A DNA stretch of 62,377 nt, counting the filler, from Nemertoderma westbladi (Eukaryota > Animalia > Xenacoelomorpha): assembly GCA_032718475.1 (NCBI GenBank). It is 3 parts of 3 records of this genome, joined end to end, with 100 filler letters (N's around TTAATTAATTAA, not from the genome) between each part and the next. Parts side by side here need not be neighbours in the genome. Positions count along the whole stretch, not along the records: positions 1 to 22,001 come from JAUCBJ010003459.1; 2 more parts are not named here. One strand, given 5' to 3'. Shown here piece after piece: positions 2,602-61,679 of the stretch. The notes beneath the pieces are model-generated. The model was given only the letters and a program-made list of their open reading frames with translations. It was not told the DNA's origin and made no database searches. A program made the position numbers and the translations under genes. The first letter of the stretch is position 1; every line of letters begins with the position of its first letter.

Positions 2602-4496
2602 CGAATCTACTATTGTTAACTATTAACTATATTATTATTATTATTACATTTTAATTAGCCATATAGATAGCATATATTATATATAGAGACCCACAACACT
2701 TAGTACAATAATTAAGTAATCTACTCTATATTATAATTATTATATTATACTCTATAATTATAATTACACAATAACGTATTTATATATAATATATATAGTA
2801 AAGTAAATCATGAACTGACAAAAGCGAGAGCATTTGCCGTATCCTAGACGACAGGCAAAAATAATTTATTGCACAAACGATATAATTATCATAGTAGGAA
2901 CCGAAGGTTACTTTCTGTAATAAGAATTTGATAATAAATTTAATAAAATAAATAAATAATAATATAATAACAAATAAATAATTTTAATAATATAATATTA
3001 TTATATAATAGTAATAATAGTAATATTTTAAAGCGAAATAATATAAAAACGGCTCTAACGATTTCGTTAAAATTTTGCATGACGCAATGTTTTGATGACC
3101 ACTATCGTTTCCCGCTGGTCCCATGTCTGTCCATAGAATGTGGGCTCGAAAAATAGTCATAAACGAAAAAACGCCATAGGCCCAATGATAAAACACCAGC
3201 TGGAGCACATGAAAAATAGACGGAGAGAGGGATGTCAATACAAACGACTGTCTCAGTACACTTTTAGAACGCATCAGATTACTTTATAGGCCAACTGTTC
3301 TTGCATTCCAACCAGAAATTAACGGGCTTTCAGGTAGACCAATTGGTTTTTTGAATTTCAATTTTTTTTCATATAATTAGCTTATTTTTTTAAAAATTGT
3401 CCTGATTTTCAAAAAATTTAGCCAAATAATTAGTATCACAAACATTACAATCGCAGTTCGGTACTTATTCTTACATAATATAAAAACTAATTGGTTTACG
3501 TTATTCTACGGTAAAAAATGTTCCTAGTGGGACATTTTAACTCTATAACTCAAATGGCAGCTGAGAAACATGTAACGAAAAAATTCTAAAAACTCATTTT
3601 GAGAAAAATTATGTTAAAATTTGTACCTTCCCGCGCAAAAACTGTCTGTTATTATGAAATAACGTCTGTCAATATATACCTAGCAAATAGAAAGCATTAA
3701 ACCATGCGTCGACTTTTGCTATGGGGGTGTTCCTGGTCGCTGATTTCATTTCTGATGTCAGTTTTCACTTAAAATTAAATATTGATTTTCTGTAGGTAGT
3801 CTTTCGGTCTTTCTGACTATCCGACAATCTGTCCGTTAAAAATAAGAAAAGAGCAAACAATCTAGTTAAAAGTTTAACTAGCGGGGTTTTCCTGGTCGCG
3901 GAATTCATTTCGAGTGACAGTTTCAACATTTGATGACCTCCAAATTGTCTGTTTGGCAGTCAGTCTGTCGGTTATATTTTGACGTACAGACTTACAGGCA
4001 TACAGACAGAAACGACGAGGCCAAATTTGAATACATATCAGAAATGAAGTCAACCCATATAACGAAAACCCATACAGGGAATTATTTTAGGCAGATAATT
4101 TACTTTTTATCGACGGACAGACATACTGACGGACAAACCGACAGTCAATCGGTCAGACAGCCATATCTTGAGAAGTAAGACAGATCTGGCTAAATTTGGA
4201 ATCTTGATAAAAATCTGCTCTAGATGAGACAGAAAATAAATTTGAGTGCCTGTACTACTCCCCTTAACGTTGAATTTAATTGAACAAAAAGGTCGGATTC
4301 TTTGCAACTATTTATTAGTAGTTGCTACCCATAGACAGTGTTAGATAAGAGCGACAGATCGTCAGCATCCTAAGTGATTAATGGGTTTACCATTAATTAC
4401 ACAGCCATAACCTGATCTATTTAAAGCTTTGATTAAATCATCTATGTATAAATTGTATGAGTAAGGGCTGAGAATACCGCTTTGTTTGGTACCATT

Positions 4497-5257
4497 AGTT
4501 AAAGAAAATCTATCAGAGTTATAACTACCCCTACTAACAATAAGTTGTTGGCTACGATAGTTACAGAAAATCTATCAGAGTTATAACTACCCCAACTAAC
4601 AATAAGTTGTTGGCTACGATAGTTACAGAAAATCTATCAGAGTTATAACTACCCCAACTAACAATAAGTTGTTGGCTACGATAGTTAAAGAAAATCTACA
4701 GAGTTATAACTACCCCAACTAACAATAAGTTGTTGGCTACGATAGTTAAAGAAAATCTACAGAGTTATAACTACCCCAACTAACAATAAGTTGTTGGCTA
4801 CGATAGTTAAAGAAAATCTATCAGAGTTATAACTACCCCAACTAACAAAAAGTTGTTGGCTACGATAGTTACAGAAAATCTATCAGAGTTATAACTACCC
4901 CAACTAACAATAAGTTGTTGGCTACGATAGTTAAAGAAAATCTACAGAGTTATAACTACCCCAACTAACAATAAGTTGTTGGCTACGATAGTTACAGAAA
5001 ATCTATCAGAGTTATAACTACCCCAACTAACAATAAGTTGTTGGCTACGATAGTTACAGAAAATCTATCAGAGTTATAACTACCCCAACTAACAATAAGT
5101 TGTTGGCTACGATAGTTAAAGAAAATCTATCAGAGTTATAACTACCCCAACTAACAAAAAGTTGTTGGCTACGATAGTTAAAGAAAATCTATCAGAGTTA
5201 TAACTACCCCAACTAACAATAAGTTGTTGGCTACGATAGTTACAGAAAATCTATCAG
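4497..5257. repeat. Minisatellite, ~12 copies of a 61-62 bp unit
   Basis: Unit GAAAATCTATCAGAGTTATAACTACCCCAACTAACAATAAGTTGTTGGCTACGATAGTTA(C/A)A recurs at 4504, 4566, 4628, 4690, 4751 ... 5245. Confidence 0.97.
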
Positions 5258-7235
5258 GATTTCAGGAAGTATCTACGAACTCTATAATGCGCCGTAAGAC
5301 TGTGTTTTCAAAGATCATTCCAGTTAGAATAAAATCCCAAAATGGGAGATCAATTACAACTTTTTTGGATAATGGGTCGGATTGCTCTTTGATCGATGCA
5401 GATTTGAGCAGATGGTTAAATTTAGATTATGAAGCAAAGAAGGTTTCCTTGAGTACAGTGAATGATCGAAATGGTATGATTGAGTCAGGTGAAGTTTCAT
5501 TCACAATAGAAGGTATTATGAAAGAATATGAAAATGTGAATGTAAAAATTGAATCAGCACTGATTTTCCCAAATTTGAATATCAAGTATAAACGACCAGC
5601 TGACTATTATCCTGAATATGATTTTCAGTGGAAACGAACTGATGTGGACCTAAGCTACCCAGAACTAGATATAGATACTGTGAATCTTCTTATTGGACAT
5701 GATGTACCTGCATTACATATACCTATTGGAGAAGTAGCGCGTCCACAGGACATCAATACACAACCTTATGCAGAAAAAACATTATTAGGCTGGACTCTCA
5801 GTGGTGTCAAAAATGAATCCGTTGATACAATCAACCATAATGAATTGTTTGAGATCAGGATTAACCATGTCCAAAAGAGTATTATCTGTAAGATTAACAA
5901 TTGGAATATCACTGGAGTTGACATAAGAAAGCTGGAGATTCAACCAAGCGATGGCGTTCATCCTGGAGTGAAGTTCTGTGAGATCAATGGAGATGACCAT
6001 GAACTTGTACTTGAGTCAGAGAGAACACAGAGGGCTATGACGAAGTACTTCAATCAGGAGTCTCACGAACTTGATGATCACAATAAAGCGCATTCCGAGG
6101 AGGATCTAAAATGTATTGAGATGTTAGATAAATCTGAATTCATAGATGGGCACTGGGTATCACCAATGCTCTGGAGAAACCCAGCCAAAATAATGGATAA
6201 CAACTTCTCTATGGCATTTAGTCGCCTTAAATCTACCGACTTCATGGTAAACCAGAAATAAAGAAGAGATATAGCGAAATCATTCAGGGCTATTTAGAAG
6301 ATGGAATTGCATCTCGAATACCAGAAGATGAGTTGGGTCAATGAAAGCGTACATATTACCTTCCAACGCATTATGTGCTTGAACCCAGAAAAAAGGGAAA
6401 GATTCGTGTTGTTAATGGATGCATCAGCAACATATAAAGGGGAATCCCTAAATACACAGCTATATACTGGTCCAAATATATATAGTTCATTGGTTGGTGT
6501 ACTCTTTAGATTTCGGGAAGGACAAGTTGGAATGACATGTGACATTAAAGCAATGTTTCATCAAGTTCGCACAACCAAGAAAGACTCTGATAGCCTTAGG
6601 ATACTCTGGTGTGACGTAAACCTAACCATTGAAGAAATAGAAAATCTTTCTCCAAGCGATATTGTAATTATTCGCATGTTAGTGCATATATTTGGAGCCA
6701 GGGATTCACCAGTAGTCTGTCGTGATGCCTTGAAAAGGACAGAAACAAAGTTTGGAAATAATTTTTATCCCATAACTGAGGAAACAGTCAAACGATGCTT
6801 CTATGTAGATGATGGAATGATAAGTACAGATACTCCTGAAGAAGCAATTTGTTTAGCCCTAGACCTAAAGGCTCTTCTCAAACGAGGGGGTTTCAACTTA
6901 GTGAAGTTTAGATCAAATAATAAAACGGTGATGTCTAATCTTCCTGACGATATTAAACTCACAAGAGAAGAAATGTTTGGGGAAACTGCAGATCATAAAG
7001 CATTAGGGATTCAATGGGACCTCCAGAAGGATAGTTTATATTTTAAATATGCGCCTAAAGGAAAACCTTGCACTAAGCGCGGCGGATGCCTGTCCATACG
7101 AAATTCTGTTTTTAATCCAATAAATTTCCTAGCACCTGTACTTCTGGTAGGCATGGATATCATAAAATCCATGTGGATAAATAAGATCTCTTGGGATAAA
7201 ATTCTTCCCCAACCTATTCAACAAGAGTGGAATAA
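5258..7235 (+). pseudogene. BEL/Pao protease and reverse transcriptase remnant (frameshifted)
   Basis: ORFs 5224-6261 and 6301-7254 carry DNGSD, DASATYKGESLN, DIKAMFHQV, IFGARDSP, FYVDD, KALGIQWD. Confidence 0.9.
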
Positions 7236-7254
7236 GGGGGGAATAAGAGAGTAA

Positions 7255-8160
7255 GGGGGGGGGGGGGGGGTAGCACCCCCAAATTGAACCTCACATTTTT
7301 GTGTCTCTGGACCATAAACTTGGGTGAAAATAATTTTTTCTGCTACTAAACAACGTCTGGACTGTCTGAGAATGGCCAAACCAATATTTTTAAAATTGGC
7401 CCCAAAATGGCTCCGTAATGGCCAAAAAGGCCTTTTTGCGCCAAGGGCTATTTCTCCACCAATATTTGTTGAAAATTGTTGAAATTTGGATTATAGGTTC
7501 AGAAGAACCCTGCATCCAATTCTTCTTAACAAATTTTGCCTCAAATGCTCTGGAGCCTTTTTAGAACAAAAAGGCCCCAAAAAAGGGCCTTTTTGGGCCT
7601 TTTTGAAATAAAAAGGTTCCGGGGCATTTCCAACCAAATTTGTTAAGAAAAAGTATGGAGAAGGGTAATCTTAACAACTGTTCCAAATTTCAACTCATTT
7701 CAGTCAAAATTGGCGGAGAAATAGCCTTTTTCATGAAAAAACGTCGTTTAGAGATATGGGTGTTTAAAGTTTAAGGAATAATTTAAACCTTCCCGCTATT
7801 TTAGATAATACCAATTTTCTATGTTCGTCAATAACTTTGTCAAAAATGAATGAAATTCCACAAAATTTTTCATGCTTGCTAAACAGATAACGTTTTAGCA
7901 ATTTTATGCATATCTATAACGTGAGAAACTTTTTTATGAAAAGGGCCCTGTACAATTGTAAAATATAGTGCTGCTCGAAGGCTTTACAAAAATCAGACTA
8001 GCTCTTACGTTTTGGCTAATAACTTGAGTTTGAAAAAAGATATGAGAAAACTGCTGGCAGATTTGAAATCACCATTAAATTTGGCACATGATAGAATAAA
8101 AAAACTTTTTGTCAAATTCCAAAATAGGGGTGTGCTAACCCCCCCCCCCCCCCCCCCCCC
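7255..8160. mobile_element. TTAA-targeting MITE with G-rich termini (Kolobok- or Sola3-like), copy 1
   Basis: TIRs (G)nTAGCACCCCC / GGGGTGTGCTAA(C)n followed by TTAA. A closely similar ~900-bp copy is at 60588-61491. Confidence 0.85.
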
Positions 8161-8736
8161 TTAAATCAAAGATATGGTTCCAAGGCCCTGAATTCCTGAA
8201 AAGCCTGAATCTGCATGGAATACTAGATGTGATCCATTACTAGACTCTGGGAAGTATAGTGAAGCGGATAAAGAAATCTGTGACGGGATCAGAGATCCCG
8301 ACCGGGTAGGTTGTTATACGCGTCACCGTTTTGCCTTAGGGATGGTGCTAGCAGCTTGGCCGAGGCCGATGTAGGAAAACAATGAGAGTTCGATGTTGTC
8401 TCTTGATATTGTAAATGATAGCACAATAATTAACTGATGTAGCAGAAGTATAGATATGATGGTATATGATTGATAATATATGACTGATGACGGTGAACAA
8501 TGTTACCGGTCTGCACTGAAACTGGGTAACTAACTAACTGAATCACAAACCGGTAACGGGAGGTAATATATGATTGATATACCAATATTGCTTCACCTTC
8601 TACGCTACTTTGGCCTGTTACCTAATGGATGCTCTCCTGTGTCCTATCACGTGCTTTCATCCCCCCTATTGACTAATATCCTACTTGTCACCCTTGCACT
8701 CTCTGGGAGTGTTTCCCCTCTGCTGCTAGCCTCTAC

Positions 8737-9001
8737 TGTGGTGTTGTAATAACAATAATGGTTAACAACAGTTCAGTATAATATAGGATTGTAATTATAA
8801 GATATTCCAGTATTCATTCAATACAGCATTCAGTCAATAGCTTTTACTGGTAGTCAACCTGTATCACTTACTGTACCGGTACTGCCGCACGGTACCTACC
8901 TACTCCCTTCAGTCCTGACTCTCCCCTACTGCTGTACCGCCGTCCTCCCCTACTCTAGGGGGCCGTATCCACTTCACCCCCTGTGTGACTACCCTAACAC
9001 A
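8737..9001 (-). repeat. 3' LTR (265 bp)
   Basis: TGTGGTGTTG...CCCTAACACA on +, matching 12588-12852. Confidence 0.97.
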
Positions 9002-9124
9002 TCAGTTTCTATAGAAACTAATTATTTTACAATTTTAGTTTGCAAATTGTACATAACCGAGTCGTAGTAATTATTATCTTATCGTCCATATCGGCGATCG
9101 GTGTCCTAACCCCAGAACACCACG

Positions 9125-10276
9125 TCAGTCAACATCGAAACCGTAATATCGTGGAGCCTGTATTTGTCTACCAATACGTGTCACAATCGGCTCCGGATCG
9201 CAATCATCGCTGATATTACTATCAGTATCATCAGTTTCAGAGTTCTCAGAACTTTCAGTTTCGGAGTTACTTATTTCAGGCTTTTTAGAACTTTCAGTTT
9301 CGTGCCCCTTTTCCTTATCTGTACCTGTCCGGCTGGGCACCTTCCGTACATCATGTAGGTGTCGCCGCACCCCCTTCACCATGACCGACCGAGTGTCAAC
9401 TGCATCTACCTGAACCGGTCCCCTCCATTTTTGAGTGCATCGGACGTGCTGGCCAGGTTTTACGTAAACCATGTCACCCCTCTCTATAGTAGAATGCGGG
9501 AACGCGAACGTTTTTCCTGGATGTTTGAGTTCGTCCTGCTCTGGGGAAAGAGCAGTTACCCCTGGTAGTTTCCTATGGCGTTGTGCCAATCCCTGGAAGC
9601 ACTGGCTGGCTGGACAATGTTCTTGGCCCCGCCCCTTCGTTTGATTGTACCAGAATGTGGCCTGCTCCAATGTTTTCCCTGATCGAGCAACCCATTTCTT
9701 TATAGTCCTATGAACTCTTTCCACAGGATTACCTTGTGGTCGATAGGCGCAGACGTACTTTAGTTTTACCTCCCACTTCTCGAGAAATTCTTGGACTTCA
9801 CGGCTCCAATATGCTGGGCCGTGGTCTGCCAAGAATTCGTCTGGTGGACCGAATTCGATGAACAGCTGTTGCAGTTCCAGAACAACAGTTGACGCTTTCT
9901 GATTGGCTGCTCGTCGACATACAGTGTAGTTGGTTGCACAATCTAATATCGTTAAATACTTTCTGTTTCCATAGTCTGTGAAATCGCTTGAAAGTCGCCC
10001 CCACGGTTGATTAACCTTACTAGTTCCTGGTTCCCATGGTAATGGACTGGGATCGATGCTAATACACTGTTCACATTCGCGGCACACCTTCTCAATGAGT
10101 TTTTTCGGCACTATATTTTTTATTTCGTGGTCGTTCTGGCAGAGTTCAGTGGTTCGTTCCACCCCTGGGTGGAAAATATTGTGGATTTCTCTAACTCGCT
10201 CTATTTGTCTGTTTTCTGGGTTAGTATTCTCGGAGACGGTTGTCGCCGCTGCTATCGCATTGCCCCCCCCCCCCAT
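9125..10276 (-). CDS. Integrase portion of pol (HHCC zinc finger + DDE core)
   Basis: HNIFHPG...CEQC, RLSSDFT, FLADHGP, NPVERVHRTIK, C-terminal RIGRQIQAPRY. Separated from the RNase H frame at the C-run 10263-10274. Confidence 0.92.
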   Translation of the reverse strand: MGGGGNAIAAATTVSENTNPENRQIERVREIHNIFHPGVERTTELCQNDHEIKNIVPKKLIEKVCRECEQCISIDPSPLPWEPGTSKVNQPWGRLSSDFTDYGNRKYLTILDCATNYTVCRRAANQKASTVVLELQQLFIEFGPPDEFLADHGPAYWSREVQEFLEKWEVKLKYVCAYRPQGNPVERVHRTIKKWVARSGKTLEQATFWYNQTKGRGQEHCPASQCFQGLAQRHRKLPGVTALSPEQDELKHPGKTFAFPHSTIERGDMVYVKPGQHVRCTQKWRGPVQVDAVDTRSVMVKGVRRHLHDVRKVPSRTGTDKEKGHETESSKKPEISNSETESSENSETDDTDSNISDDCDPEPIVTRIGRQIQAPRYYGFDVD

Positions 10277-10850
10277 TAGTTTCAGTTTCTAGTTTTATCC
10301 ATTTTTGGGGAATTCTCGTGAGGGGGTCTGCTATATTCTTTTCTGATGCAACTTGATGTACTCGAATAGTGAGTTTATATTGCTCGATCATGTTTCCTAT
10401 CAGATCAAGTCGCCGTGCCACTAACTTTCGCGCTTGCCCTTTTGTTTGGATCCTATGTGAGTCGTTTATCACTGCTTTCAACCAACTTCCAGCAGTTACA
10501 GAATCCACATATAAGTCGATATCTACCAACCCCCAATCGATGGCTAGGTTTATCCCCTCCACAACGGCATCGAGTTCTGCTACGTTTATGTGGCTAGTGT
10601 CATTAGGTTTTCGCAGCCAGGCCGCATCTTCCACTATCACACCTCCGATTTTTATCACCACACCCTTTGCTATAGAGCTAGCGTCCGACCATACCTCACC
10701 GTGTGTCGTCATTGGGACTACCCAGTCACCTGTCACCGGATCGCTGGTCTCTAGACGGGCCAAGGTTTCACTCAACATTTTTCGGACCCCCTTCTCTACA
10801 GCTGTGTCCCACGCTTTCCCTGCACTGCAGCGCTGCAGCCATGCACACGA
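10221..10850 (-). CDS. RNase H portion of pol (DIRS1-like motif pattern)
   Basis: VWSDASSIAKG, HINVAELDAV, LYVDSVTA, VASEKNIADPLTR. Confidence 0.88.
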   Translation of the reverse strand, partial: SCAWLQRCSAGKAWDTAVEKGVRKMLSETLARLETSDPVTGDWVVPMTTHGEVWSDASSIAKGVVIKIGGVIVEDAAWLRKPNDTSHINVAELDAVVEGINLAIDWGLVDIDLYVDSVTAGSWLKAVINDSHRIQTKGQARKLVARRLDLIGNMIEQYKLTIRVHQVASEKNIADPLTRIPQKWIKLETETNGGGGQCDSSGDNRLREY

Positions 10851-11380
10851 TGGTCTGGTAAGATTGGAGATATTCTGGAACATTCACTTGCATATATGCC
10901 CATTTCAAGTCGACTATGGCCGTATTGTGTCCCATTCGGCGCCATTTTCTCATCTTCTCACCACACGCCGCAGCATCTCGGCCTGGTGAATTCTCAATAT
11001 ATTGGTTTAACTCTCGATAGTCTAATATTGGGCGTATTCGCCTTTTCTTTGGCTCGTATTTTCCCATCAATGGGATGGTCCCTCGCACCTTCCCGTGTCG
11101 CTCTTTGTCATAGGGTACCACCCAGCCTTTGTCTATCCATTCATCTAAGGCTGTATCATACATTTCGCGGTGTTCGGGACGAATTTTATACTCAGTTGTA
11201 TGGTTCTTCAGTGTTGGTGGACCCTCATCTGTTTTCCACTTCCACTCAACTGACCAATGTTTCCCGTCATAATTGGCTCGGAAATCCGATTCATCTATAT
11301 TGATATTCCGCGGGCCTGGTATGTCTTGTCCCGTATTTATCTCATCTATCTTTGCCACCGCCCCAGCTGCTCCAAATACG
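10850..11380 (-). pseudogene. N-terminal RT fragment, truncated before YxDD
   Basis: WIDKGWVVPY, RIRPILDYRELN, VDLKWAYMQV...YQTIV, then an out-of-frame jump into sequence just upstream of RNase H. Confidence 0.85.
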
Positions 11381-11762
11381 TCGCGGCCCCAATCCGTTTA
11401 ATTGTGTCATACCCAAGAATTATTGTCGCGATCCCCAACAGCTTCTTCACTACCAGGAATGTACACTTCACCAGTTGTTGCTGACCTTCAACCTCGATTA
11501 TGGTGAGGTCAACTTCTCCAACAATATTAGCCTGGGCTTCACCATCTAGCATAGTGATGTTTCTCCTTTGGCCTGGATTCGACATAATACTGAGTTTATG
11601 CTGTTTACACCAAGGGGCTGACACCACACCTCTAGTACACCCTGTGTCAACTAACGCCCTCACTGTCCCTTCTACATCTTCTACGCGTACGCCAACTACT
11701 GGTGCATCCAGCTTCCCTGGGAAACGTCCGTTGGCCGCAACGTTCCCCTCTTCTCGTTTCCC
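11346..11762 (-). CDS. Aspartic protease (start of pol, -1 frame relative to gag)
   Basis: RALVDTGCT and IILGYD motifs. Confidence 0.88.
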   Translation of the reverse strand, partial: GKREEGNVAANGRFPGKLDAPVVGVRVEDVEGTVRALVDTGCTRGVVSAPWCKQHKLSIMSNPGQRRNITMLDGEAQANIVGEVDLTIIEVEGQQQLVKCTFLVVKKLLGIATIILGYDTIKRIGAATYLEQLGRWQR

Positions 11763-12574
11763 GTCGGTTCCGGACCAACACTTCCAGGTGCCCCCCGGTC
11801 GCCTCCGCCGCCTCGACAACCCCTAGCTAGGTGGCCCGCATCAGCACATTTAAAGCATACCACCTTCCCTGATGGTGACCCTCCTGCCGATTGGCATTCC
11901 CTCGCAAAATGTCCTGGTTTCCCACAGTTATAGCAACTGCTTGGGGTTCGCCCCCGGTCCGCCCCCATCTGCCCCACGCCGCCCCGACCCCGACCCCGAT
12001 GGTAGTCCGATTGGTCTCCTTGATATCGTTGACATCCACCTGCTGCGCCCATCTGCTCGCTGACTGTTTGCTCGGACAACATTCTCCTTGCAAGATTTAG
12101 CAATTCGCCGACACCCCCCTTTGATGCCATCGCTTTTACCTCCCCGCGCACTCTATCAGGCAGCCCGTTTGCGAACTGTACCGCAAGTATATCCATAGCG
12201 CACTGACTCGTCGGTTCCTCCGTTACCAGTGACAGCAGCCGCCGCAGGTCGGCCAAATATGTATCCGCTGACTCCGATCCCACCAGAACTCGGTTTTTGA
12301 ACTTCTCGAATGCAGTGTAGGCCGTATCAGCAAATGCCTGAATTAATGTTTTCCTCACTGTAGCATAGTCCCCTTTCTCTGTGTCGCTAAGCTGGCTGAC
12401 TACGTCATGTGCTGCACCTGTAAGCGACAACCGAAGGTAAGTTACTTTGCTATCCTCGCTGAGTTTCGACTCCACTTTCAGTATTTTGAATGTATCTTCA
12501 AAAGTTTCCAGCCACACGCATGGGTCGCTTCTACCATCAAACTTCGAAACGTAGTCTGCCAATTTAGGAGCCAT
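11696..12574 (-). CDS. gag: Gag with two CCHC zinc knuckles
   Basis: ATG at 12574 (MAPKLADY). Knuckles CYNCGKPGHFAREC and CFKCADAGHLARGC, plus an RG-rich linker. Confidence 0.93.
   Translation of the reverse strand: MAPKLADYVSKFDGRSDPCVWLETFEDTFKILKVESKLSEDSKVTYLRLSLTGAAHDVVSQLSDTEKGDYATVRKTLIQAFADTAYTAFEKFKNRVLVGSESADTYLADLRRLLSLVTEEPTSQCAMDILAVQFANGLPDRVRGEVKAMASKGGVGELLNLARRMLSEQTVSEQMGAAGGCQRYQGDQSDYHRGRGRGGVGQMGADRGRTPSSCYNCGKPGHFARECQSAGGSPSGKVVCFKCADAGHLARGCRGGGGDRGAPGSVGPEPTGNEKRGTLRPTDVSQGSWMHQ
11715..11762 (-). promoter_or_regulatory. Programmed -1 ribosomal frameshift signal (slippery G GGA AAC plus downstream stem)
   Basis: Heptamer GGGAAAC at 11762-11756 in the gag/pol overlap (gag T-G-N-E, pol D-G-K-R), followed by a GGGAACGT...ACGTTTCCC stem. 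Confidence 0.8.
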
Positions 12575-12587
12575 AGCCCGGTTAGCT

Positions 12588-12852
12588 TGTGGTGTTGTAA
12601 TAACAATAATGGTTAACAACAGTTCAGTATAATATAGGATTGTAATTATAAGATATTCCAGTATTCATTCAATACAGCATTCAGTCAATAGCTTTTACTG
12701 GTAGTCAACCTGTATCACTTACTGTACCGGTACTGCCGCACGGTACCTACCTACTCCCTTCAGTCCTGACTCTCCCCTACTGCTGTACCGCCGTCCTCCC
12801 CTACTCTAGGGGGCCGTATCCGCTTCACCCCCTGTGCGACTACCCTAACACA
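12588..12852 (-). repeat. 5' LTR (265 bp)
   Basis: Matches 8737-9001 and is followed on + by the TSD TCTAC. Confidence 0.97.
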
Positions 12853-13392
12853 TCTACTAGCTGTATCCCCTCCGAGGTGGTTTGACCTCTAACCTTCCTT
12901 TGTGTGTGGCTTCGGGGCTTGTGTTGCCCCCCCCCCCCAAATGTTGGTTGTGATACGAGATTAATATTGCTAATCTCGTATCTCCAACATATTGCTGAAA
13001 ATGCCACTATCCCATTTTCTGGTGGGTAATGAAGCGGAATTGAATCCGCTTACAAAATCCACAAGATTGGAAAAGCTACAACACCACTTGAAATATATGA
13101 ATATATGACTGAACCATTTGGATATGAAAGAGTGGAAAATATTCATACAATTCAAATTCCAGATGCACATATGTTGAAAAAACCTGCTTCACAAAAGACA
13201 CAAGTTATCATAGGACCATATACGGTACAATCATTAATACAACAACATTATTAATCATACCATCGATTGGTTCTTTTTGTGATTACAATAAGACAATTTA
13301 TTCGATGGCATAAGGGATTAATTATTCAAAGATGTCAACTTATTCCTCAGACTGAATACCAGATATATTAAATTAAATTAATGGAAGAACAG

Positions 13393-22001: not shown

Positions 22002-22101
22002 NNNNNNNNNNNNNNNNNNNNNNNNNNNNNNNNNNNNNNNNNNNNTTAATTAATTAANNNNNNNNNNNNNNNNNNNNNNNNNNNNNNNNNNNNNNNNNNN
22101 N
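22002..22101. other. Assembly gap linker (N44-TTAATTAATTAA-N44)
   Basis: An identical 100-nt construct is at 50825-50924. Confidence 0.97.
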
Positions 22102-41872: not shown

Positions 41873-42808
41873 CTAGAACGATAACCCGGAATCCGACCCA
41901 AGCGATATCTAGAACGATAACCCGGATTCCGACCCAAGCGATATCTAGAACGATAACCCGGATTCCGACCCAAGCGATATCTAGAACGATAACCCGGAAT
42001 CCGACCCAAGCGATATCTAGAACGATAACTCGGAATCCGACCCAAGCGATATCTAGAACGATAACCCGGAATCCGACCCAAGCGATATCTAGAACGATAA
42101 CACGGAATCCGACCCAAGCGATATCTAGAACGATAACCCGGAATCCGACCCAAGCGATATCTAGAACGATAACCCGGAATCCGACCCAAGCGATATCTAG
42201 AACGATAACCCGGAATCCGACCCAAGCGATATCTAGAACGATAACCCGGAATCCGACCCAAGCGATATCTAGAACGATAACCCGGAATCCGACCCAAGCG
42301 ATATCTAGAACGATAACCCGGAATCCGACCCAAGCGATATCTAGAACGATAACCCGGAATCCGACCCAAGCGATATCTAGAACGATAACACGGAATCCGA
42401 CCCAAGCGATATCTAGAACGATAACCCGGAATCCGACCCAAGCGATATCTAGAACGATAACCCGGAATCCGACCCAAGCGATATCTAGAACGATAACCCG
42501 GAATCCGACCCAAGCGATATCTAGAACGATAACACGGAATCCGACCCAAGCGATATCTAGAACGATAAACCGGAATCCGACCCAAGCGATATCTAGAACG
42601 ATAACCCGGAATCCGACCCAAGCGATATCTAGAACGATAACCCGGAATCCGACCCAAGCGATATCTAGAACGATAACCCGGAATCCGACCCAAGCGATAT
42701 CTAGAACGATAACCCGGAATCCGACCCAAGCGATATCTAGAACGATAACCCGGAATCCGACCCAAGCGATATCTAGAACGATAACACGGAATCCGACCCA
42801 AGCGATAT
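41873..42808. repeat. Highly homogeneous 36-bp minisatellite, 26 copies
   Basis: Unit CTAGAACGATAACCCGGAATCCGACCCAAGCGATAT, 936 bp in total. Confidence 0.98.
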
Positions 42809-43452
42809 CCTTCTAGACCGTCTATATCGGGACTAAGACGCCGTGCAGCGGCGCAACTGATTGCTAATGGTTATCACCACAAATTCTGCACAGGCGAAAA
42901 GTGCTGACGACAAAATTAGAATTGTGTACCTGCATATGCAAATTGTGCCAAAATAGTGTAGACCCTGTCCAGTCCATTATAAACACTGTTCTAAAATACC
43001 GAGTTTTGGTTCGTCACTTAGAACTGCAATGTACCTTTACATGATTTGAAATAACTTTATAGTAATTATTTTCCATTAATGATGCGATGTAATGTAATTT
43101 GTAATTTTATGCGTTATGTATTTTATTCCAAAATTGTATCATTACTCAACGCCGTTAGTATTAACAGCGAGTTGTTATTTAGCACTTTACAACTTTAGAG
43201 GACATTACAGCATTGTATTGGCCTGTACATTTAGTATTGTATTTTGTGTTATTATAATATAATTATAACAATTAACAATGCGCATAGCTAACCCTCAGGC
43301 ATATAATAACTTGTAACTCCACAGGTATTAGTTAGATTAGTAGTGTTATAACAGCATTGAAAGATTGACCATTAAAATTATAGTAGAACCAAGGTTAATT
43401 AATAACTGTTGAGAGTAGGCCAACTGGATTGGATTAGCGAATTATATGCTCA

Positions 43453-46400
43453 ATGTCTCAGGGATCGCTGCGGTGTTGCCAATGTGGCATCACCAGCAAT
43501 GGTTGCTGTGAAAGCCGTCGTTGCGGATGCTTTCGAGCCGAACGTTCGTGTGTCAGCTGTTGTCAGCTCAATATCGGCCGCTGCAGGAACCAGTACACGC
43601 TACAACAACTCAGTTCAACCGCTAGTTTACCTTTACCCAGTCCATGTGATGGAAGAGGACAGGTATGTTCGTGCTCTCTCTCGCCAATCCCATCAATCGA
43701 CAGGACTCTCATTGACAATTCCTCAGGGAATGACAGCTCGTTCTTCGGTGACCTAAATAACACCGTCATCTCGACTATTCGATCGAGTAGTCCCATCCTA
43801 ACCAACCTGCCAGCCATTACGATTCCCTTGATCAGCTCCTCGCGTCATGCACTGCCTCCGTCTACTAATGATCGCCAGCCTACGATCCATTGGTTTGAAG
43901 CCTCGTTTCCACTGGAGAGGTTTATCTTCTCTTTACGAGGAGCTTACAACATGGTAGTTCATTGGCATCCCAACCTCTTCCTGTTGCCTCCCGGGGCCAT
44001 CGGTAGGGCGGTGGTTTCCGAGATGAGCCGACTGCTGAAACTCTTCTCAGCAGAACCCAGTTACGAAGATGCCTCACAGGGCTTATGATACTCCCTGCAC
44101 TTCTGCTTCAGAAGCCAAGTCGTGATTCTGCTGCGTTGGTTCATCGACGGGTTTTAGAGCGCCGGTTCGAGTCATTGAAGTCGGGACATTTTGATCGTTA
44201 TTACAGGAGGCAAGTGCCATCCAGGCTCATCTGCCCAAGCGGTCTGCGTGCACTGTTCTGCTGCACAACACTGCCGCTGAGAAAGTTTTCTGTAGACATA
44301 TGCTTACAGGGAATGTCAACGCAGCAATCAGGTGCCTGAACGAGTTAGAAAAGGGGAAGGTACTCTCTCTCGATGAGTCTGTCACAGACAAGAATGGGGT
44401 GACGAAGAAGGTGCGTGATTTTCTTCTCGATAAACATCCTCCAGCCGCTCCGGCAGATCCATCGACTCTCCTGAGTGGGTACAACCGTGCTCCGGAATTT
44501 CACCCAGTCATTTTCGAGAAGATTTCAGCTGATGTTGTGCTAAACTGTCTGCTCCAGATCCGGGGAAGCGCTGCAGGGCCTTCGGGACTCGACGTTCAGG
44601 GGTGGAAACATATCGCCACTCGGTTCCGGAACTCTTCAACAGAACTGTGCTCCAGTATAGCTTCTGCTGCAAAGAAGATTGCAAAGTTCCCGCTGGAGTC
44701 ATCAAACCTCTCCTCGCTGCTCTCTGCTCGCCTCGTGGCAATTGATAAGTGTCTGGGGGTCCGACCTATCGGAATTGGTGAGGTGTTGTGTCGCATTATC
44801 GGCAAGACGGTTATATACTGCATCTCTAATGATCTGCAGAGCATTGGCGGGTCGGTTCAGCTCTGCTGCGGGCAGAAGGCGGGGATTGAGCACGCAATCC
44901 ACAGCCTCAGCGATGAGTTTGCCAAGGACGACTGTGAGGCGGTGCTCCAGGTTGACGCTACAAATGCATTCAACTCGATTAATCGTGCCGCTGCAACCCA
45001 CAACATCGGGATGGTTTGTCCCTCGCTGCAAACCATAGTATCGAACTGCTATGCAACTCCTTCAAAGTTGTTCATTGGCGGGGAGTACATACTCTCGTCA
45101 GAGGGCTTCACGCAGGGTGATCCGATAGCGATGCCATCTTACGCAGTCGGATCGATCCCTCTGATCGTCGAGGCGGGTGCTGCAGCGGATGTGCTACAGA
45201 AGTGGTTTGCGGACGATGGCAATGCCGCAGGGACTCTATCGGAACTGCGGAAGTTCTGGGACCTCATCCAGACTCGTGGGCCCTCACATGGCTATTTCCC
45301 GACAGAGTGCCACCTTCTCGTCAAACCGGAACTGATCCAGGAAGCCCAACGTCTGTTTCCAGATGATGGTTTCACCATTGAAGTCCGAGGGAGCCGACTC
45401 TTAGGAGGTGTCATCGGGAACGACGAGTACCGTGAGGAATTTGTGAACTCTAAGGTAGCTGAGTTTACTACTCAAGTGGATCTTATCACCAAGATTGCCT
45501 CTATGGATCCACACTGCGCCTACGCTGGCCTCACCATCGGCCTAGCAGCTCAGTGGAGGTACATCTCTCGTGTGGTACCCGGGTCGACCCAGTTATTCGG
45601 TGACCTTGAAAATGCAGTTTGGAAGTGCCTCGGCGCACTAACTGGCCAGCCATCCATCTTGACAGTGGAGCGGGAGTTGTTCTCCCTACCGGTCCGGTCA
45701 GGTGGTCTGGCAGTTCCCCTTCCGAGTGACCTGGATGCACAATATGTGAACTCCAGGAGGCTGTGTCAGCCCTTCAATGAACACAATGATCCGGACTCGA
45801 TTTGGGCAGCACAGTGCGAGATCATCAAGGTGAGCCGGAGTACTGACTCCCTGCAATTGGAGGGGAAGCTGAATGCGATTCGCAATCAACTCACGCCAAA
45901 TCAAAAAACTCTCCAAGAACTCGTGTCAGAGAAAGGCGCCTCAGCGTGGTTGAACTCACGCCCCATCACCCTGCTCGACACGCTTCTCAATAAAGAGGAG
46001 TTCAAGGATTCACTCTGTCTTCGCTATTGCTGGTTACCCCAGTCGCTCCCAGCTCGTTGCGCCTGTGGGACACGATTTTCCGTTAATCATGTCCTGTCGT
46101 GTCCCACTGGTGGTTATCTGTCAATCCGGCACAACGAGATCCGGGATTTCGTCGCATCAACCCTGACCGAGGTCTCCCAGAACGTCTCGATTGAACCCCG
46201 ATTGCAGCCTATCTTTGGTGAGCAGTTCGAGAGGCGTTCAACAACGGAGGACCATGAGGCGCGGCTGGACGTGGCGATGTATGGGTTTTGGGGATCGAGA
46301 TTCCAGAGAACCTTTTTGGACATCTCGGTTTTCAATCCTCTCGCTCCGACCAATGCAGCAATGACACTAGAGGGCGCCCATCTCCATCACGAGGCGCGGA

Positions 46401-46741
46401 ATCGGGGTCGGTATGAAGAACGAGTCAGGGAAGTCGAGCTGGCGACCTTCACACCACTGATCATGTCTGCTTTCGGAGGAATCTCACCATCCACGGCGCA
46501 GTTCTTCAAACACCTTGCTGTTCTGTTGGCGGATAAGCGGGAGATCAGCTACACAGAGTGTGTTACCTGGATCCGACGACACATCAGTTTTCTGCTGGTT
46601 CGGGCCGCCCACATGTGCCTGCGCGGGTCAAGGTCATCACGCCACCGGCCAGTTCATAACGCCAACCTGGGAGAAATCTCCATCCGGCTCACAAACAACG
46701 GGGCGGCCATCGGAGGCAGCGGGGGTGAAATGCGGGGTTGA
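43453..46741 (+). mobile_element. CRE-like non-LTR retrotransposon (Cys-rich N-terminus, RT, zinc knuckle, restriction-like endonuclease), near full length with frameshifts at ~44080-44300
   Basis: RPIGIGEVLCR, QLCCGQKAGIE, DATNAFNSINR, QGDP, WFADD, CACG...HVLSC...RHNEIRD, RLDV...FLDI, FTPLIMSAFGG, CLRGSR. Confidence 0.92.
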
Positions 46742-50824: not shown

Positions 50825-50924
50825 NNNNNNNNNNNNNNNNNNNNNNNNNNNNNNNNNNNNNNNNNNNNTTAATTAATTAANNNNNNNNNNNNNNNNNNNN
50901 NNNNNNNNNNNNNNNNNNNNNNNN
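50825..50924. other. Assembly gap linker
   Basis: N44-TTAATTAATTAA-N44. Confidence 0.97.
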
Positions 50925-51091
50925 ATAGTGGCTAGCGATTCTAATAGGCCTGGCTAATCAATTAGTTCTGTAGTTGTAATATATATTCAGATATTATATA
51001 GGCCTATACATTATATTGATGATCAATCTCGCTATTGCTATTCGTACTGTTCGATCATTCATTGCAAAAAATTGCGTTGGACTACTCCGAG

Positions 51092-54000
51092 ATGATTGGC
51101 TCTGGAAAAGGATTAACGACTTCCCAAGCTGAAGCACCATGCAGCGCTCATATACAGTACGCGAACGCGGGAAATTTTGCGAAAATACCCCGAGAAACGG
51201 CCCGCAATCCACAGAAAGGCGTCGTGCAGTTCGCCATTAATGACGATGTTAGGAATTTCCGGCATTTACAGCAAGCGAGCGATAGCTTGGGATCTCGGAT
51301 TCTCCCGACACACCAAGCACCACCACCGGCATTAGGTCACCAGCAGCAAGCTTTCCATATGAACCCGCAAACAATGCGAAGTCCCCCCCACATCCATCAA
51401 CAGCCCCCACTCTCCTTCCACCATCTAGGCAACCGACGTATATCTTTAATCGCCGATTACCACACACGACAGGGTTATTCGAGTAACTCCACGATCACCC
51501 CTAATCCAACCCTCCGCCCCTCGATAATATCAGCCCCCGACACCCGCCCACCTCCCTCTTCTCCGGTAACTAAACAAGCGCTGATCGAATCGATGGGAAA
51601 AGTCGACACGGAGATAGACATTGTCGAGCAAAAAATAAACAAGCTAATAAGCAAACAACGGGAGCTCGAAAATGAAGCGAATAAACCTAGGGTTGTCCAC
51701 GCGAAAACTGGTGAGAGCGCCGTGGTAAATCAGCATGAATCGTTAGCTCAGACCATTTATATGGAAAATGATGACAAATCAACATCAGCTCATCGGTTAG
51801 TAGCCGGTGACAAACATAATTCTACAGGGTTTCCTTTGTATAATCAACCATCGGATTGCGCTGTTTATCATAAAAACGTGACTGCTGCGAAATTATTGAA
51901 ACCTGCTTTGATCGCAAGTCTCGCACGCACGAACAAAGCGCGTTGGTTGCGCGACCAGATAATGAGTCAGTGGTATGCTGATGAGTACAAGGCATGGGCG
52001 AAGAAGGTGGAAGCCCATCAGGTGAGCGGGAAACGCCGCGCGAGGGCCGTCAAGTTCCGCGATAACTTCGAGAAGGTTTTCCCAGATCTCCGTAAGAAAA
52101 GAGACCAGGTGGACCGGCTGAGTCGGATGGGGACTCGAACGGGACGCAGTGACGCGGATGTAGAAGAAATCGCGTCAGTCCTACACGAGAAGGACCTCAG
52201 CGATAAACATATGCACGCGATGGCAGTGATTCCCCCGATTCTATACGATGCAAAGCGTCGCAACATGAAATACATCAACGATAACGGGCTGATTGGTGAC
52301 CCTGCCGCCGACTGGAAAGCCAGGCAGAAGACAAACATCTGGGCCGTCCAGGAAAAGAGAATATTTCGCGAGAAATTTCTTCAACATTCCAAGAATTTTG
52401 GTTTGATTTCCTCTTTCTTGGAGAATAAATCAGTTCGCGATTGCGTCGCTTTCTATTACCTAACGAAAAAGAAGGAGAATTATAAACAACAAGCGCGACG
52501 AACTGCAGTGAAGAAGCGTAAACTCCCTCATAAATCAACATTCGAAGGTCTGCAGCCCGCTGTGCGTGAAGCCAAAGCCGACAGTCTAGAGAGTGCAGAT
52601 AGCAACATGGCGGAATCGATTGATGGATTTAACGACACCATCGATGAGGTTTCTTCTATAGCGGTGTCTGATGAAGTGAAGGCGGATCTTGTTGTGGGTT
52701 CCGAGAGTGTTACCACCGAGCCGGAGCACTACAGACCTTGGCTGTCCCGCCTGGGGAGTTGTCCCTACGCGAAGTGTCTGTCCGGAATCGCGGCCCCGCA
52801 GAAACTCTACGAGTTGCCTTCATTGTGGATTGATTTGTACCGCGGGGCGATTGAGGCCGAGTTGGGGGTCAGTAGTAGCGGGAGTGGGGAGGGCCCTGCC
52901 GAGGCGTGCATTCGGTGCCGGGACTACGTGCTGCAGCGTTGGGTTGAACCGGATTGGCCGGGGCAGCGCGTTGACGCCCTCAGGCGGGCGCTTAAAGAAC
53001 ACGGACTCAACTGGCTCGAGGTCTGCACCATGGTGACCGACCGCACGCCCGAGCAGTGCAAGAGTTTCTACCACACGTACAAGTCGAAGTACGGACTCGA
53101 AGCCTGTGTGCAGGCCTTCATGGTAAAGAAAGGAGGAGTCAGTAAACGGGAGCGCAGCGAGTCTACGCTGACTGCGTTTGAAGGCGAGACTATGGAGTCT
53201 AGTGTCGTTGCGGCTGACAGTCCATCGGACACTGTGAGTGCAGACGGGATGGAAGTGGCCGGAATCTGTGAAAGTAAATCCGAGGAGCCGTGGTCCGGGG
53301 GGGAGAAACACGATATAATACGTGGGATCGTGGTGTCCGAGTCCGTGTCCACCCGCTGCCCGGAATCATGTCCTGCAGATAGTCCGCCTGCCTCTGCAGT
53401 CGCTGTACAGGGGTCTATCGTGCGGGGCACCCCGATGCGCTCCACAGCGCAGAAAACAAACGAGGCGGCATTCGGCCGCGTTCCATTGGCCACCGTGTCT
53501 CCCGTAGCGACGCCGCTGACCCGCGCCCCGTCGGGTGGCGACTACTCTCAACCAGATCGTTTAAACAACGCGACACAAAGTCGCCACGAAGAGCTGCGAC
53601 AGGCGTACCAGGTCTCGCGACGGCTGGACGCGGGCAGTGGCACTTCGGCTCGGATCGCCACGGTTGCGCCGAGCGTCCAACGCCCCTCGGAGCCGGTGTA
53701 CTACCCCAGCAGGGGGCAGATGAGGCGGTTAATCGGGGAGCGGCTCACGCAGGATCCGTTCTTAGCGGAACGTTTCGACCTGGAAGGCCGACTAGTTGAG
53801 CCGGCGCCCGTTCTCATGGGAGGTAGCGAGCCCATCAGGGCGCTGCCCCCACAGCCTTACCGCGTAGCTGTGGATTACTCATCATTACGACTCACCGACG
53901 AGCAGCACCGAGCGTCCGAGTCGCACAAACTCACTGCGACCGAACACCGGCCACTCCATGTGATTGACAGCCAGACTGGAGATATATTCGCTATCGATTC

Positions 54001-54916
54001 TGCTGTCTATGGAGCGGGTCTACGGGTTGATCAGGCAGGTTTGCGGGTTGATCAGTCGGGTCTGCGTGTTGATCAGTCAGGTTTGCGGGTTGGTCAGTCA
54101 AGTCTGCCTCTGCGGGTTGATCAGGCGGGTCTACGGGTTGATCAATCGGGTCTGCGGGTTGATCAGTCGGGTCTGCATCTGCGGGTTGATCAGGCGGGTC
54201 TGCGGGTTGATCAGGCCGGTCTGCGGGTTGATCCGGCGGGTCTACGGGTTGATCAGTCGGGTCTGCCTCTGCGGGTTGATCAGGCGGGTCTACGGGTTGA
54301 TCAATCGGGTCTGCGGGTTGATCAGTCGGGTCTGCGTGTTGATCAGTCAGGTTTGCGGGTTGATCAGTCAGGTCTGCCTCTGCGGGTTGATCAGGCGGGT
54401 CTGCGGGTTGATCAGGCCGGTCTGCGGGTTGATCCGGTGGGTCTACGGGTTGATCAGTCGGGTCTGCCTCTGCGGGTTGATCAGGCGGGTCTGCGGGTTG
54501 ATCAGGCCGGTCTGCGGGTTGATCCGGCGGGTCTACGGGTTGATCAGTCGGGTCTGCCTCTGCGGGTTGATCAGGCGGGTCTACGGGTTGATCAATCGGG
54601 TCTGCGGATTGATCAGGCTGGTTTGCGGGTCGACCAATCAGGTTACCGGGTTGATCAATCGGGTTTACCCTTATGTGTTGATCAAGCTGGTATAAGATTT
54701 GACCCATCGGGTTCACGGGTTGATCCATCGGGTTTACGGGTTGACCCATCGGGATTACGGGTTGACCCAACTGCTGCTGGCGGATTGGCAGTGCTACCTG
54801 GTGCGACTCCTTTGCTGCGTTACGATGCCGCGATGTTGCCGGTACAGTACGACCGTCTGTCCCAGGGTTACAGACTAGCTGACTCCTTACATCTACACCA
54901 AAATAGGGTGCGCGAG
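51092..54916 (+). CDS. NCOR: Nuclear receptor corepressor (NCoR/SMRT family), exon 1
   Basis: GPS2-binding coiled coil (LIESMGKVDTEI), PLYNQPSD, FEKVFP, AVIPP, SANT1 (FREKFLQHSKNFGLI...YYLTKKKENYK), SANT2 (LKEHGLNW...QCKSFY), GSIVRGTP. Donor GAG|GTGAGA at 54917. The start codon is uncertain because the exon lies close to a gap. Confidence 0.93.
54015..54770 (+). repeat. In-frame 21-bp (and 27-bp) tandem repeat encoding GLRVDQ(S/A), inside NCoR
   Basis: About 30 units visible in both DNA and protein. Confidence 0.95.
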
Positions 54917-55679
54917 GTGAGATTGGCATCTTATGTAAATAATATGATACTAATAGATAAAATGTATTAATTAAAATAAAATAATTAAGTAGATGAGTAA
55001 TCCGCACTCAAGATCTTGGTTACGGATTTGCCACAATATTAGCAATATGTGGGATATTCGGCAAATTATTGTGCTGATTGGATACGACACCTTATTTAAA
55101 TAGTTTTCTTGCTGATGCTACTAGGCCTACTACTATTACAAGGTCGAGCGAACTCGGACAGTGGAAATGAGATCCTTCCAGGCTTCCCGATTCTCCATAG
55201 TTGTCGTAATTTCGTTTCTCCCAAGTTCAGTTTGTCCTGGCAAGTTGGTCTATATATGTTATATTTGGGTGTGTAGTGTATTTCTGTTGCAGATGCATCA
55301 TCAAGCCTTTGTTTTCAATAATGGTGTCCTAGTCACTGCTGTTGTAGCTCTCAATGACTTATTTAGCTGAGCCCTACTGGGCTGACAGCTACAGGTAGTA
55401 CCACAGTTAGTACTGCCAGAGTGGTAGCAGGATCTGGGGACCCTGACATGACCTGTTGATGGGAAAGTCCGATTTGTTTACATTTTTAGTTAAAAAGCTT
55501 ATGATTCACACATGGGGTCATGACTCGTGTTAGGATACAAAATATGAAACATAATTCCTTTGTAAGTTACTCATACTTTGTAGATATAACATATATAGGG
55601 GCGGGCGGCGGCGGGGTCATTGTTCTAAGTTAATGTTATTAAACAAAGGTTTCACTATTTCTTACTTCTGTGTCCGCAG

Positions 55680-60587: not shown

Positions 60588-61491
60588 GAGGGGGGTAGCA
60601 CCCCCAAATTGAACCTCACATTTTATTGTCTCTGGACCATAAAATTGGGTGAAAATTATTTTTTCTGCTACTACACATCGTCTGGACTGTTTGAGAATAG
60701 CCAAACCAAATATTTTTAAAATTGGCCCAAAATGGCTCAGTAATGGTCAAAAGGGCCTTTTTGCGCCATGGGCTATTTCTCCACCAATATTTGTTGAAAT
60801 TTGTCGAAAATATTTAATATAGGTTCAGAAGAACCCCGCATCCAATTCTTCTTAACAAATTTTACCTCAAATGCTTTGGAGCCTTTTTAGAACAAAAAGG
60901 CCCCAAAAAGGGCTTTTTTGGGCCTTTTTGATATAAAAAGGCTCCAGGGCATTTCCAACCAAATTTGTTAAGAAGAAGTATGGAGAAAGGTATTCTTAAC
61001 AAGTGTACCAAATTTCAACTCATTTAAGTTAAAATTGGCGGAGAAATAGCCTTTTTCATGAAAAAACGTCATTCTGAGATATGGGTGTTTAAAGTTTAAG
61101 GAACAATTCAAACCTTCCGCTATTTTAGATAATACCAATTTTCTATGTTCGTCAATAACTTTGTCAAAAATAAATGAAATTCAACGAAATTTTTCATGCT
61201 TGCTAAACAGATAACTAGTAAAACAACGTTTTAGCAATTTTATTAATATCTGTACCGTGAGAGCCTTTTTTATGAAAAGGGCCCCGCACAATTGTAAAAT
61301 ATAGTGCTGCTCGAAGGCTTTACAAAAATCAGACTAGTTCTTACGTTTTGGGTAATAACTTGAGTTTGAAAAAAGATATGAGAAAACTGCTTGCAGATTT
61401 GAAATCTCCTTTAAATTTGGCACATGATAGAATAAAAAAACTTTTTTGTCAATTTCCAAAATAGGGGGGTGCTACCCCCCCCCCCCCCCCT
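60588..61491. mobile_element. TTAA-targeting MITE, copy 2
   Basis: TTAA|GAGGGGGGTAGCACCCCC...GGGGGGTGCTACCCCC..T|TTAA; homologous to 7255-8160. Confidence 0.9.
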
Positions 61492-61679
61492 TTAATGTAT
61501 TTTATATTAGTATATTTATATTATATATTATATATATTTTTTTTATTAGTGTTCTGGAACACAGATTTTTGTTATTGATTGATTACAGGTAATTTATATT
61601 AATTATTTTTATTTATTTTGATGCGGACAATTCTGACCCGCACAATTCCGATCCATGAATATTTCATTAGATCTTTGTA

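Follow-up and report, generated by a model that had tools for sequence, protein, structure and literature searches.

A long terminal repeat (LTR) retrotransposon in a 62,377-nt stretch of DNA from the xenacoelomorph Nemertoderma westbladi (GenBank assembly GCA_032718475.1; "the window" below means this whole stretch) belongs to a family in which both ends appear to be arranged for an unusual mode of reverse transcription. Directly after the 5′ LTR the family carries a 12-nt site that is predicted to bind a host transfer RNA (tRNA) cut after nt 12, which would act as the minus-strand primer, and a hairpin-bounded G-tract of 7–8 nt beside the 3′ LTR would prime the plus strand. Based on the comparison of sequences, this reading is given a probability of roughly 0.7.

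The element lies on the minus strand of the window (12852-8737, 4116 bp). Its two LTRs of 265 bp have TG...CA termini and show only 2 mismatches to each other, both of which are CpG transitions, and a target-site duplication (TSD) of 5 bp, GTAGA on the element strand, flanks both LTRs. Immediately past the 5′ LTR comes AGCTAACCGGGC (12587-12576), a 12-mer that occurs once in the window, then one T and the gag ATG (12574); the leader has no TGG. At the other end a perfect 16-bp palindrome (9004-9019) is found 2 nt from the 3′ LTR, and the window copy has no purine tract at this place. The window has 8 perfect palindromes of at least 16 bp, and the palindrome alone is thus weak evidence. A preliminary description of this DNA had the leader, the palindrome with the missing purine tract, and the TSD with near-identical LTRs right. 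Gag, protease, reverse transcriptase (RT), RNase H and a DDE integrase are all recognizable; the RT core is deleted here and is present in relatives. No tRNA or Rfam matches were found in the window.

Integrase and Pol queries recovered full-length relatives sharing 35-45% identity and reached 539 clusters with an E of 1e-30 or lower, and the Gag search gave 3 clear relatives only. An alignment of 55 proteins was used to fetch 78 metagenome loci (the best 80 of 189 confirmed), and with 4 further loci from bacterial bins there are 82 loci in all; no relatives were found in viral contigs. The gag start can be placed in 61 of the 82. An unselected printout of the sequences upstream of gag displays ACA/AGCTA....GGC directly (the slash marks the LTR end). 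Within 130 nt of gag the motif is present in 54 of the 61 loci; three do not have it there and four are too short, and a whole-locus scan adds the motif in those three and in one of the four short loci, further up or at the contig start. Overall, CA/xGCTA-NNNN-GGC is found in 58 of the 61 gag-anchored relatives, and the scan also detects it in two loci that have no gag anchor. A loose form of the motif occurs 67 times in the sense and 3 times in the antisense orientation in 331 kb.

In 51 distinct contexts the last three bases of the LTR and site positions 1-5 and 10-12 are conserved, and positions 6-9 are variable. The information is 1.5-2 bits at the conserved site positions and 0.35 at position 13, values that are inflated by a search that required positions 2-5 and a score that favoured ACA and GGC; the motif is present in nearly all loci. 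The complement of the site is GCC-NNNN-TAGCT, i.e., tRNA nt 1-3 and 8-12 are fixed, the acceptor-stem nt 4-7 are free, and the complementarity ends at nt 1. In the two elements whose matching tRNA 5′ end has G as nt 12, site position 1 is C instead of A. The 5′ LTR of loci with two LTRs (L130, L136, L140 and L151) ends at the site or within one base of it. In most members 0-14 nt separate the site from the first ATG, and with leaders of very different length (L134, L146 and L195) the site stays at the LTR and not at the ATG. On an integrase tree made by a quick method (42 rows, family members only) the site variants are interspersed.

The 12-mers were compared with tRNA 5′ ends. Five of the 16 distinct 12-mers are identical to eukaryote-type tRNA-Lys or tRNA-Phe starts and cover 22 of the 51 contexts; none of the loci has a Tyr-type site. 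In the available text of two reports, the start of human tRNA-Lys-TTT equals one site variant, of 2 contexts (PMC12217144), and two human tRNA-fragment starts equal variants of 10 and 2 contexts (PMC12025293). A eukaryote-type tRNA-Phe(GAA) gene in L244 starts with the variant of 7 contexts. The two human fragments are presumably those of tRNA-Phe and tRNA-Lys-CTT. The variant of the window is found at tRNA-Lys gene starts in viral contigs (28/120 matches), most others being phage-type Val and Thr; the search patterns included CAG after nt 12, such that an enrichment in tRNAs was built in. These viral-contig starts are mostly of phage or bacterial type and carry no information on hosts. In the two prokaryote bins that contain family members, 8 sequences fit the pattern and all of them differ from the sites of the bins' own elements; a scan of 30 of the 82 loci for tRNA genes was negative. 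Contigs from sequencing runs were also used; in run X2, tRNA-Lys(TTT)-like contigs begin at nt 1 and agree with the reference in 34/40 letters, a comparison in which differences at alignment ends, including nt 7, are not reported. The preliminary description had proposed that its 12-mer is complementary to tRNA-Lys nt 1-12 and that a short 5′ tRNA fragment primes the minus strand. The tRNA-Lys genes in viral contigs agree with the first proposal, and the second is supported by comparison, as the 12-nt site is family-wide, is flush with CA, ends at nt 1 and has a variable middle with values that occur at tRNA-Lys and tRNA-Phe 5′ ends.

At the 3′ end, a run of at least 4 G just before TG, after the integrase stop, is present in 53 of 66 loci. 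Loci with two LTRs confirm the TG after the G-run as the LTR start, and their 5-bp TSDs are exact in L140, agree at 4/5 in L130 and L151, and are not found in L136. The G-rich tract of the relatives is 7-8 nt long, with a hairpin directly 5′ of it. A hairpin of at least 5 Watson-Crick pairs is seen in 41 of 47 distinct contexts, compared to 1/47 thirty bases upstream and 147/2820 shuffles. Of the 43 contexts whose stem has at least 4 pairs, 41 place the hairpin 6-8 nt from the LTR. A composite scan for hairpin and tract, in which purine tracts without G4 were admitted, detects 42 of 56 loci, 12/1680 shuffles and 0/208 coding stretches. The stem sequences vary; the 29 perfect stems in a fixed register have eight different right arms (swap control 94/2561). 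In the unadjusted alignment 70.6% of cells pair vs 60.5% in shuffles and 36-50% in slid registers, and 29 cells are changed on both sides vs 15.2 +/- 3.2 in shuffles, a number that 0/500 shuffles reach.

Sister copies of the window element were taken from contigs of the sequencing runs, which lose rare variants; four of six runs were compared with the element, and three of the six (two studies), none of them RNA, contain 65-71% of its words. Six extra G-rich bases are found between the palindrome and the LTR in X1 (depth 197.3/197.3) and X3 (19.1/19.1). X2 has the same six bases as one contig joint, and X5 is without coverage at the site. With these six bases the palindrome of the window family is 8 nt from the LTR, which is the usual distance in the family. 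Thus the palindrome corresponds to the conserved hairpin beside a short polypurine tract (PPT), which it would adjoin and not replace. The element had been described as lacking a PPT, and this does not hold, given the six bases of the sister contigs and the G-run of the relatives. The view of the palindrome as a plus-strand feature stands in part, as the hairpin is real and conserved, but its proposed role does not: it adjoins the PPT. It had also been stated beforehand that a PPT in sister copies would count against the plus-strand proposal, and both sister copies and relatives have one. A second hairpin, with an 8-bp stem, is located at 9028-9051, just upstream of the conserved hairpin on the element strand.

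The window copy is defective and has further lesions. Relative to the sister contigs, a short deletion is found near 11377 and the catalytic core of RT is gone near 10858, where an X3 contig continues for ~500 letters (10856). There is also a frame break between integrase and RNase H at a homopolymer run near 10263-10274. Contigs of X1 and X2 stop at the RT deletion point (10857-10860) and the X3 contig reads through; the RT-deleted form may coexist with full-length copies as a non-autonomous variant. Of the single-base differences listed, 33 lie inside the element; the 31 seen in X1 were used and two found only in X2 were omitted. None of those listed falls within the primer site or the palindrome. 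A CpG-decay context is seen in 12 of 21 decay-type transitions relative to the sister contigs (background 0.21-0.33). The window copy has thus likely aged in place and decayed after insertion, and its PPT bases were likely lost after insertion as well, but the six-base shortfall may instead be an assembly error. With this decay and the other lesions, the ends of the window copy cannot be taken as those used in transposition, and this copy is the wrong object for a test. The earlier statement that its ends were compatible with recent transposition is therefore not borne out.

The element is inserted in another repeat (8500-8736 and 12853-13100), which has a depth of ~10^4 vs ~200 for the element in X1. 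Many contigs join both flanks without the element; because the flanks are a high-copy repeat, these empty-site joints cannot date the insertion. Contigs from X1, X2 and X3 also show the integrase region followed by 20 letters that start from the exact boundary of the primer-binding site (PBS) (joint 10066 to 12576; 12576-12595), hinting at a second family in the host that shares the primer site and LTR end.

Several points weigh against a 5′ tRNA piece as primer. The exact 12-mer of the window is in no other element (1/51 contexts), 4 of the 16 distinct 12-mers deviate from the GCC start, at the end far from the LTR, and the contexts are not independent lineages. The only tRNA starts found to match the variants of 12 and 5 contexts are of prokaryote or phage type (28/120), and these variants turned up in no paper. 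One X3 contig end points to a tRNA-Lys with an acceptor stem in which C as well as U could pair at nt 7. The usual 5′ tRNA fragments are 14-16 nt and up, and a 12-nt piece with a 3′-OH is shorter. The integrase of the window groups on the tree with 10 rows, both Lys-CTT-type sites among them, but this placement is unsure because of its long branch (1.6; 42% to the nearest row). For the 3′ hairpin, two of five covariation measures are not above shuffles (388 and 52 of 500). If the 12-mer were instead a conserved cis-element, for integrase or Gag recognition or as a translation signal, its likeness to tRNA would be coincidental. Strong conservation at no more than 8 of the 12 positions, the closeness of the site to the first ATG in most members, and the lack of a confirmed host tRNA for several variants would all fit. 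However the fixed and free positions follow the tRNA pattern, five of the 16 12-mers equal eukaryote-type tRNA-Lys or tRNA-Phe starts, and the site keeps to the LTR across leader lengths; a cis-element is considered quite improbable. Less far-fetched, but unlikely as well, is pairing of the site with nt 1-12 of an intact tRNA as an anchor, for packaging or dimerisation, with synthesis starting from another 3′ end. An anchor needs no unusual nuclease, and the bipartite sites of Ty1 and Ty3 involve tRNA arms besides the 3′ end (available text of PMC5371799). However in essentially all members the site is flush with the CA of the LTR, where the 3′ end of a primer must lie, and TGG within the first 6 nt is found in 0/55 leaders. 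The 12-bp duplex of the site with a tRNA-Lys gene start in L060 has an energy of -24.6 kcal/mol, with pairing that stops at the LTR, and the 3′ end of a tRNA-Lys gene pairs with the leader weakly and discontinuously (-14.9 kcal/mol). There is very little left to recommend Tf1-type self-priming or a degenerate half-tRNAiMet site. The window copy has a 9-nt likeness to the half-tRNA site around its ATG, and self-priming and half-tRNA priming are both described types (available text of PMC6317226). Complements to a self-primer in the upstream 265 nt have a best contiguous pairing of 6.9 on average in 50 elements vs 7.1 when shuffled; none of the 50 reaches 11 pairs and the window copy has 5, in agreement with the initial doubt about self-priming. 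The half-iMet-like 9-mer, which had been offered as the alternative, is present in 1/55 leaders, the window's own, and would not abut the LTR.

With respect to the 3′ end, the window copy as assembled, with palindrome, 2 nt, LTR and TSD intact, would suggest an element that has no PPT and in which the palindrome alone defines plus-strand priming. This is now scarcely credible: in three runs from two studies, each listed contig with coverage of the site has the six extra G-rich bases, the G-run precedes the LTR in 53/66 relatives, and the window copy has other deletions and CpG decay. A role of the hairpin in RNA dimerisation, packaging or 3′ RNA processing, and not in PPT definition, deserves more weight and is possible, albeit doubtful. 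Two RNA molecules can pair through near-palindromic arms, the structure is conserved without a fixed sequence, and such a role would not conflict with tRNA priming at the 5′ end. However the distance between hairpin and LTR is nearly fixed, which points to priming or cleavage geometry.

If the 5′ tRNA piece is indeed the primer, Gag would anneal the 5′ strand of the tRNA (here of tRNA-Lys type) to the 12-nt site, and a nuclease that leaves a 3′-OH would cut the tRNA after nt 12, with the 3′-OH flush with U5. The 12-nt piece could then prime the minus strand. In Tf1, RNase H releases the self-primer, which is 11 nt. By analogy, there is about an even chance that the cutter is the element's own RNase H; otherwise a host enzyme and trimming would be involved. 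Plus-strand copying would run off at tRNA G1, such that complementarity ends there without a modified-base stop. The hairpin probably sets the 5′ boundary of the unusually short PPT, either by making RT pause or by folding away from the hybrid and so being spared by RNase H, and the short G-rich PPT would prime the plus strand. A more far-reaching proposal, made tentatively and with the odds against it, is that this is a distinct eukaryotic LTR lineage (by Gypsy and BEL profiles) whose own RNase H cuts tRNA-Phe, -Lys or -Met after nt 12 in trans, in the manner of Tf1, and that cleavage guided by structure in the same way, at a hairpin, makes an 8-nt plus-strand primer. If so, RNA structure, instead of a CCA end at one side and a long purine tract at the other, would set both ends of reverse transcription.

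The element belongs to a large, little-studied and widespread LTR lineage with gag, protease, RT, DUF7047, RNase H and integrase, and with a total length of ~4.0-4.6 kb. Named members are from the nematode Trichuris suis, and a more distant sister group is found in the sponge Sycon ciliatum. Each of the 17 Pol proteins scanned from the family has DUF7047. The Gypsy RNase H models PF17917 and PF17919 match none of the 17 at E 0.05, whereas a Gypsy control matched; among more distant relatives 1/10 has a faint match to these models (E 0.02-0.03). The BEL domain Peptidase_A17 is likewise found in 0/17, whereas a BEL control in the window (6298-7251) matches it at E 8e-8. The best match to a solved structure is the Ty3 Gag-Pol (E 9e-21), the integrase is downstream of RT and RNase H as in Ty3/Gypsy, and the gag of the window copy has a faint DUF1759 match (E 0.05). 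The RT-to-RNase H motifs of the family, by eye, are presumably BEL-like. Membership in BEL was rejected on the Peptidase_A17 result and its control. Ty1/copia was rejected as well, since the integrase is not upstream of RT and the PBS is not complementary to an anticodon stem/loop, as was a tyrosine-recombinase link for longer relatives, since these carry rve. The sister group (P0082, P0088, P0090, P0091, P0098) shows the same RT-DUF7047-RNase H block in one long open reading frame (ORF), with a more distant integrase. Four members (L199-L202) are inside bacterial metagenome-assembled genomes and are likely eukaryotic contamination of the bins.

Three types of LTR primer are given in the available text of Neumann et al. 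2019 (PMC6317226): whole tRNAs that prime with their 3′ end, half tRNAs cut in the anticodon arm, and self-primers. The 3′-end and anticodon-loop sites are described in what is available of Kojima 2024 (PMC10886601), and the corresponding text of a Ty3 review (PMC5371799) covers bipartite sites and a 12-nt PPT. Half-tRNA priming appears in these sources for Drosophila copia, yeast Ty5, the plant elements Osser, Bryco and Bianca, and fungal Helenus (PMC5371799, PMC6317226, PMC10886601). As in those systems, a 5′ piece of a host tRNA, and not the CCA end, would give the primer 3′ end beside the LTR. However half-tRNA sites pair with the anticodon stem/loop and are reported, in the text available, only in Ty1/copia lineages, whereas the sites here would pair with nt 1-12 (the acceptor 5′ strand and the start of the D-arm) in elements with the integrase after RNase H. 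A likeness to Tf1/Sushi self-priming (PMC6317226, available text) is the very short 5′-terminal RNA segment paired directly at the LTR edge. Cleavage would free this segment, as it does in Tf1, and synthesis would run off at the 5′ end of the primer. In Tf1, however, the primer is the element's own transcript end; these LTRs have no self-complement, and the partner would thus be a host tRNA in trans.

With Ty3/Gypsy the element shares the order protease-RT-RNase H-integrase, TG...CA LTRs, a 5-bp TSD and the best structure match, but it differs in its RNase H profiles, DUF7047 and total length, all given above. The PPT of 7-8 nt, preceded by a hairpin, compares with 12 nt in Ty3 (PMC5371799, available text). 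BEL/Pao has the same domain order, and the faint DUF1759 match on gag is a further likeness, but the family here has no Peptidase_A17, a separate short gag and a short integrase. Searches of the accessible literature, outside subscription journals and Repbase, gave no published account of a PBS for nt 1-12, and none of a PPT bounded by a hairpin.

A site for tRNA nt 1-12, if true, would be a fourth type of LTR primer. Very short 5′ tRNA fragments would gain a defined function, a tRNA-cutting activity would be predicted in a retroelement enzyme, and 5′ tRNA fragments could also silence these elements. Both ends would escape standard annotation, which relies on TGG and a long purine tract, and the hairpin with its short PPT offers a clean substrate on which to ask how the plus-strand primer is chosen by RNase H.

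Features of the window copy, in the order of the element strand
Feature	Position	Strand	Basis or remark
TSD, left copy (GTAGA, element strand)	12853..12857	-	same 5-mer after 3′ LTR
5′ LTR, 265 bp, TG...CA	12588..12852	-	repeat comparison with 3′ LTR
Predicted PBS, complement of tRNA nt 1-12, tRNA-Lys type, abuts CA of the LTR	12576..12587	-	motif, family comparison, duplex energy
gag ORF, 292 amino acids, two CCHC zinc knuckles, ATG 1 nt past PBS	11696..12574	-	
Aspartyl protease frame, overlaps gag end in a different frame	11346..11822	-	PF13975 E 7e-7
N-terminal RT part, broken	10768..11397	-	without Pfam match
Frame with DUF7047 end and RNase H domain	10221..10883	-	PF23088 E 1.5e-5, PF13456 E 4e-4
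Integrase frame: HHCC, DDE core, C-terminal tail	9125..10288	-	rve E 8e-14
Hairpin, 6-7 bp stem, short loop; directly before PPT in family	9004..9019	-	
PPT remnant of 2 nt, six bases shorter than sister contigs	9002..9003	-	
3′ LTR, 265 bp	8737..9001	-	
TSD, right copy	8732..8736	-	

Elsewhere in the window there is a broken BEL/Pao element with Peptidase_A17 and RT matches (5182-7254), which is interrupted by an inverted-repeat element of ~890 bp at 7265-8153; a second copy of the latter is at 60590-61490. A frame of 848 amino acids (44195-46741) has a weak RT match (E 0.003) and is likely a non-LTR retrotransposon. Two other ORFs mark the host as an animal: a long one at 51023-54970 with GPS2-interacting and Myb domains, like an NCoR/SMRT corepressor with a repeat-rich tail, and one with a fibrinogen domain at 1539-2654. 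The filler consists of N stretches with TTAATTAATTAA in the middle (22002-22101 and 50825-50924), and tandem arrays are present at 4482-5257, 41873-42809, 54014-54768 and 61675-62377.

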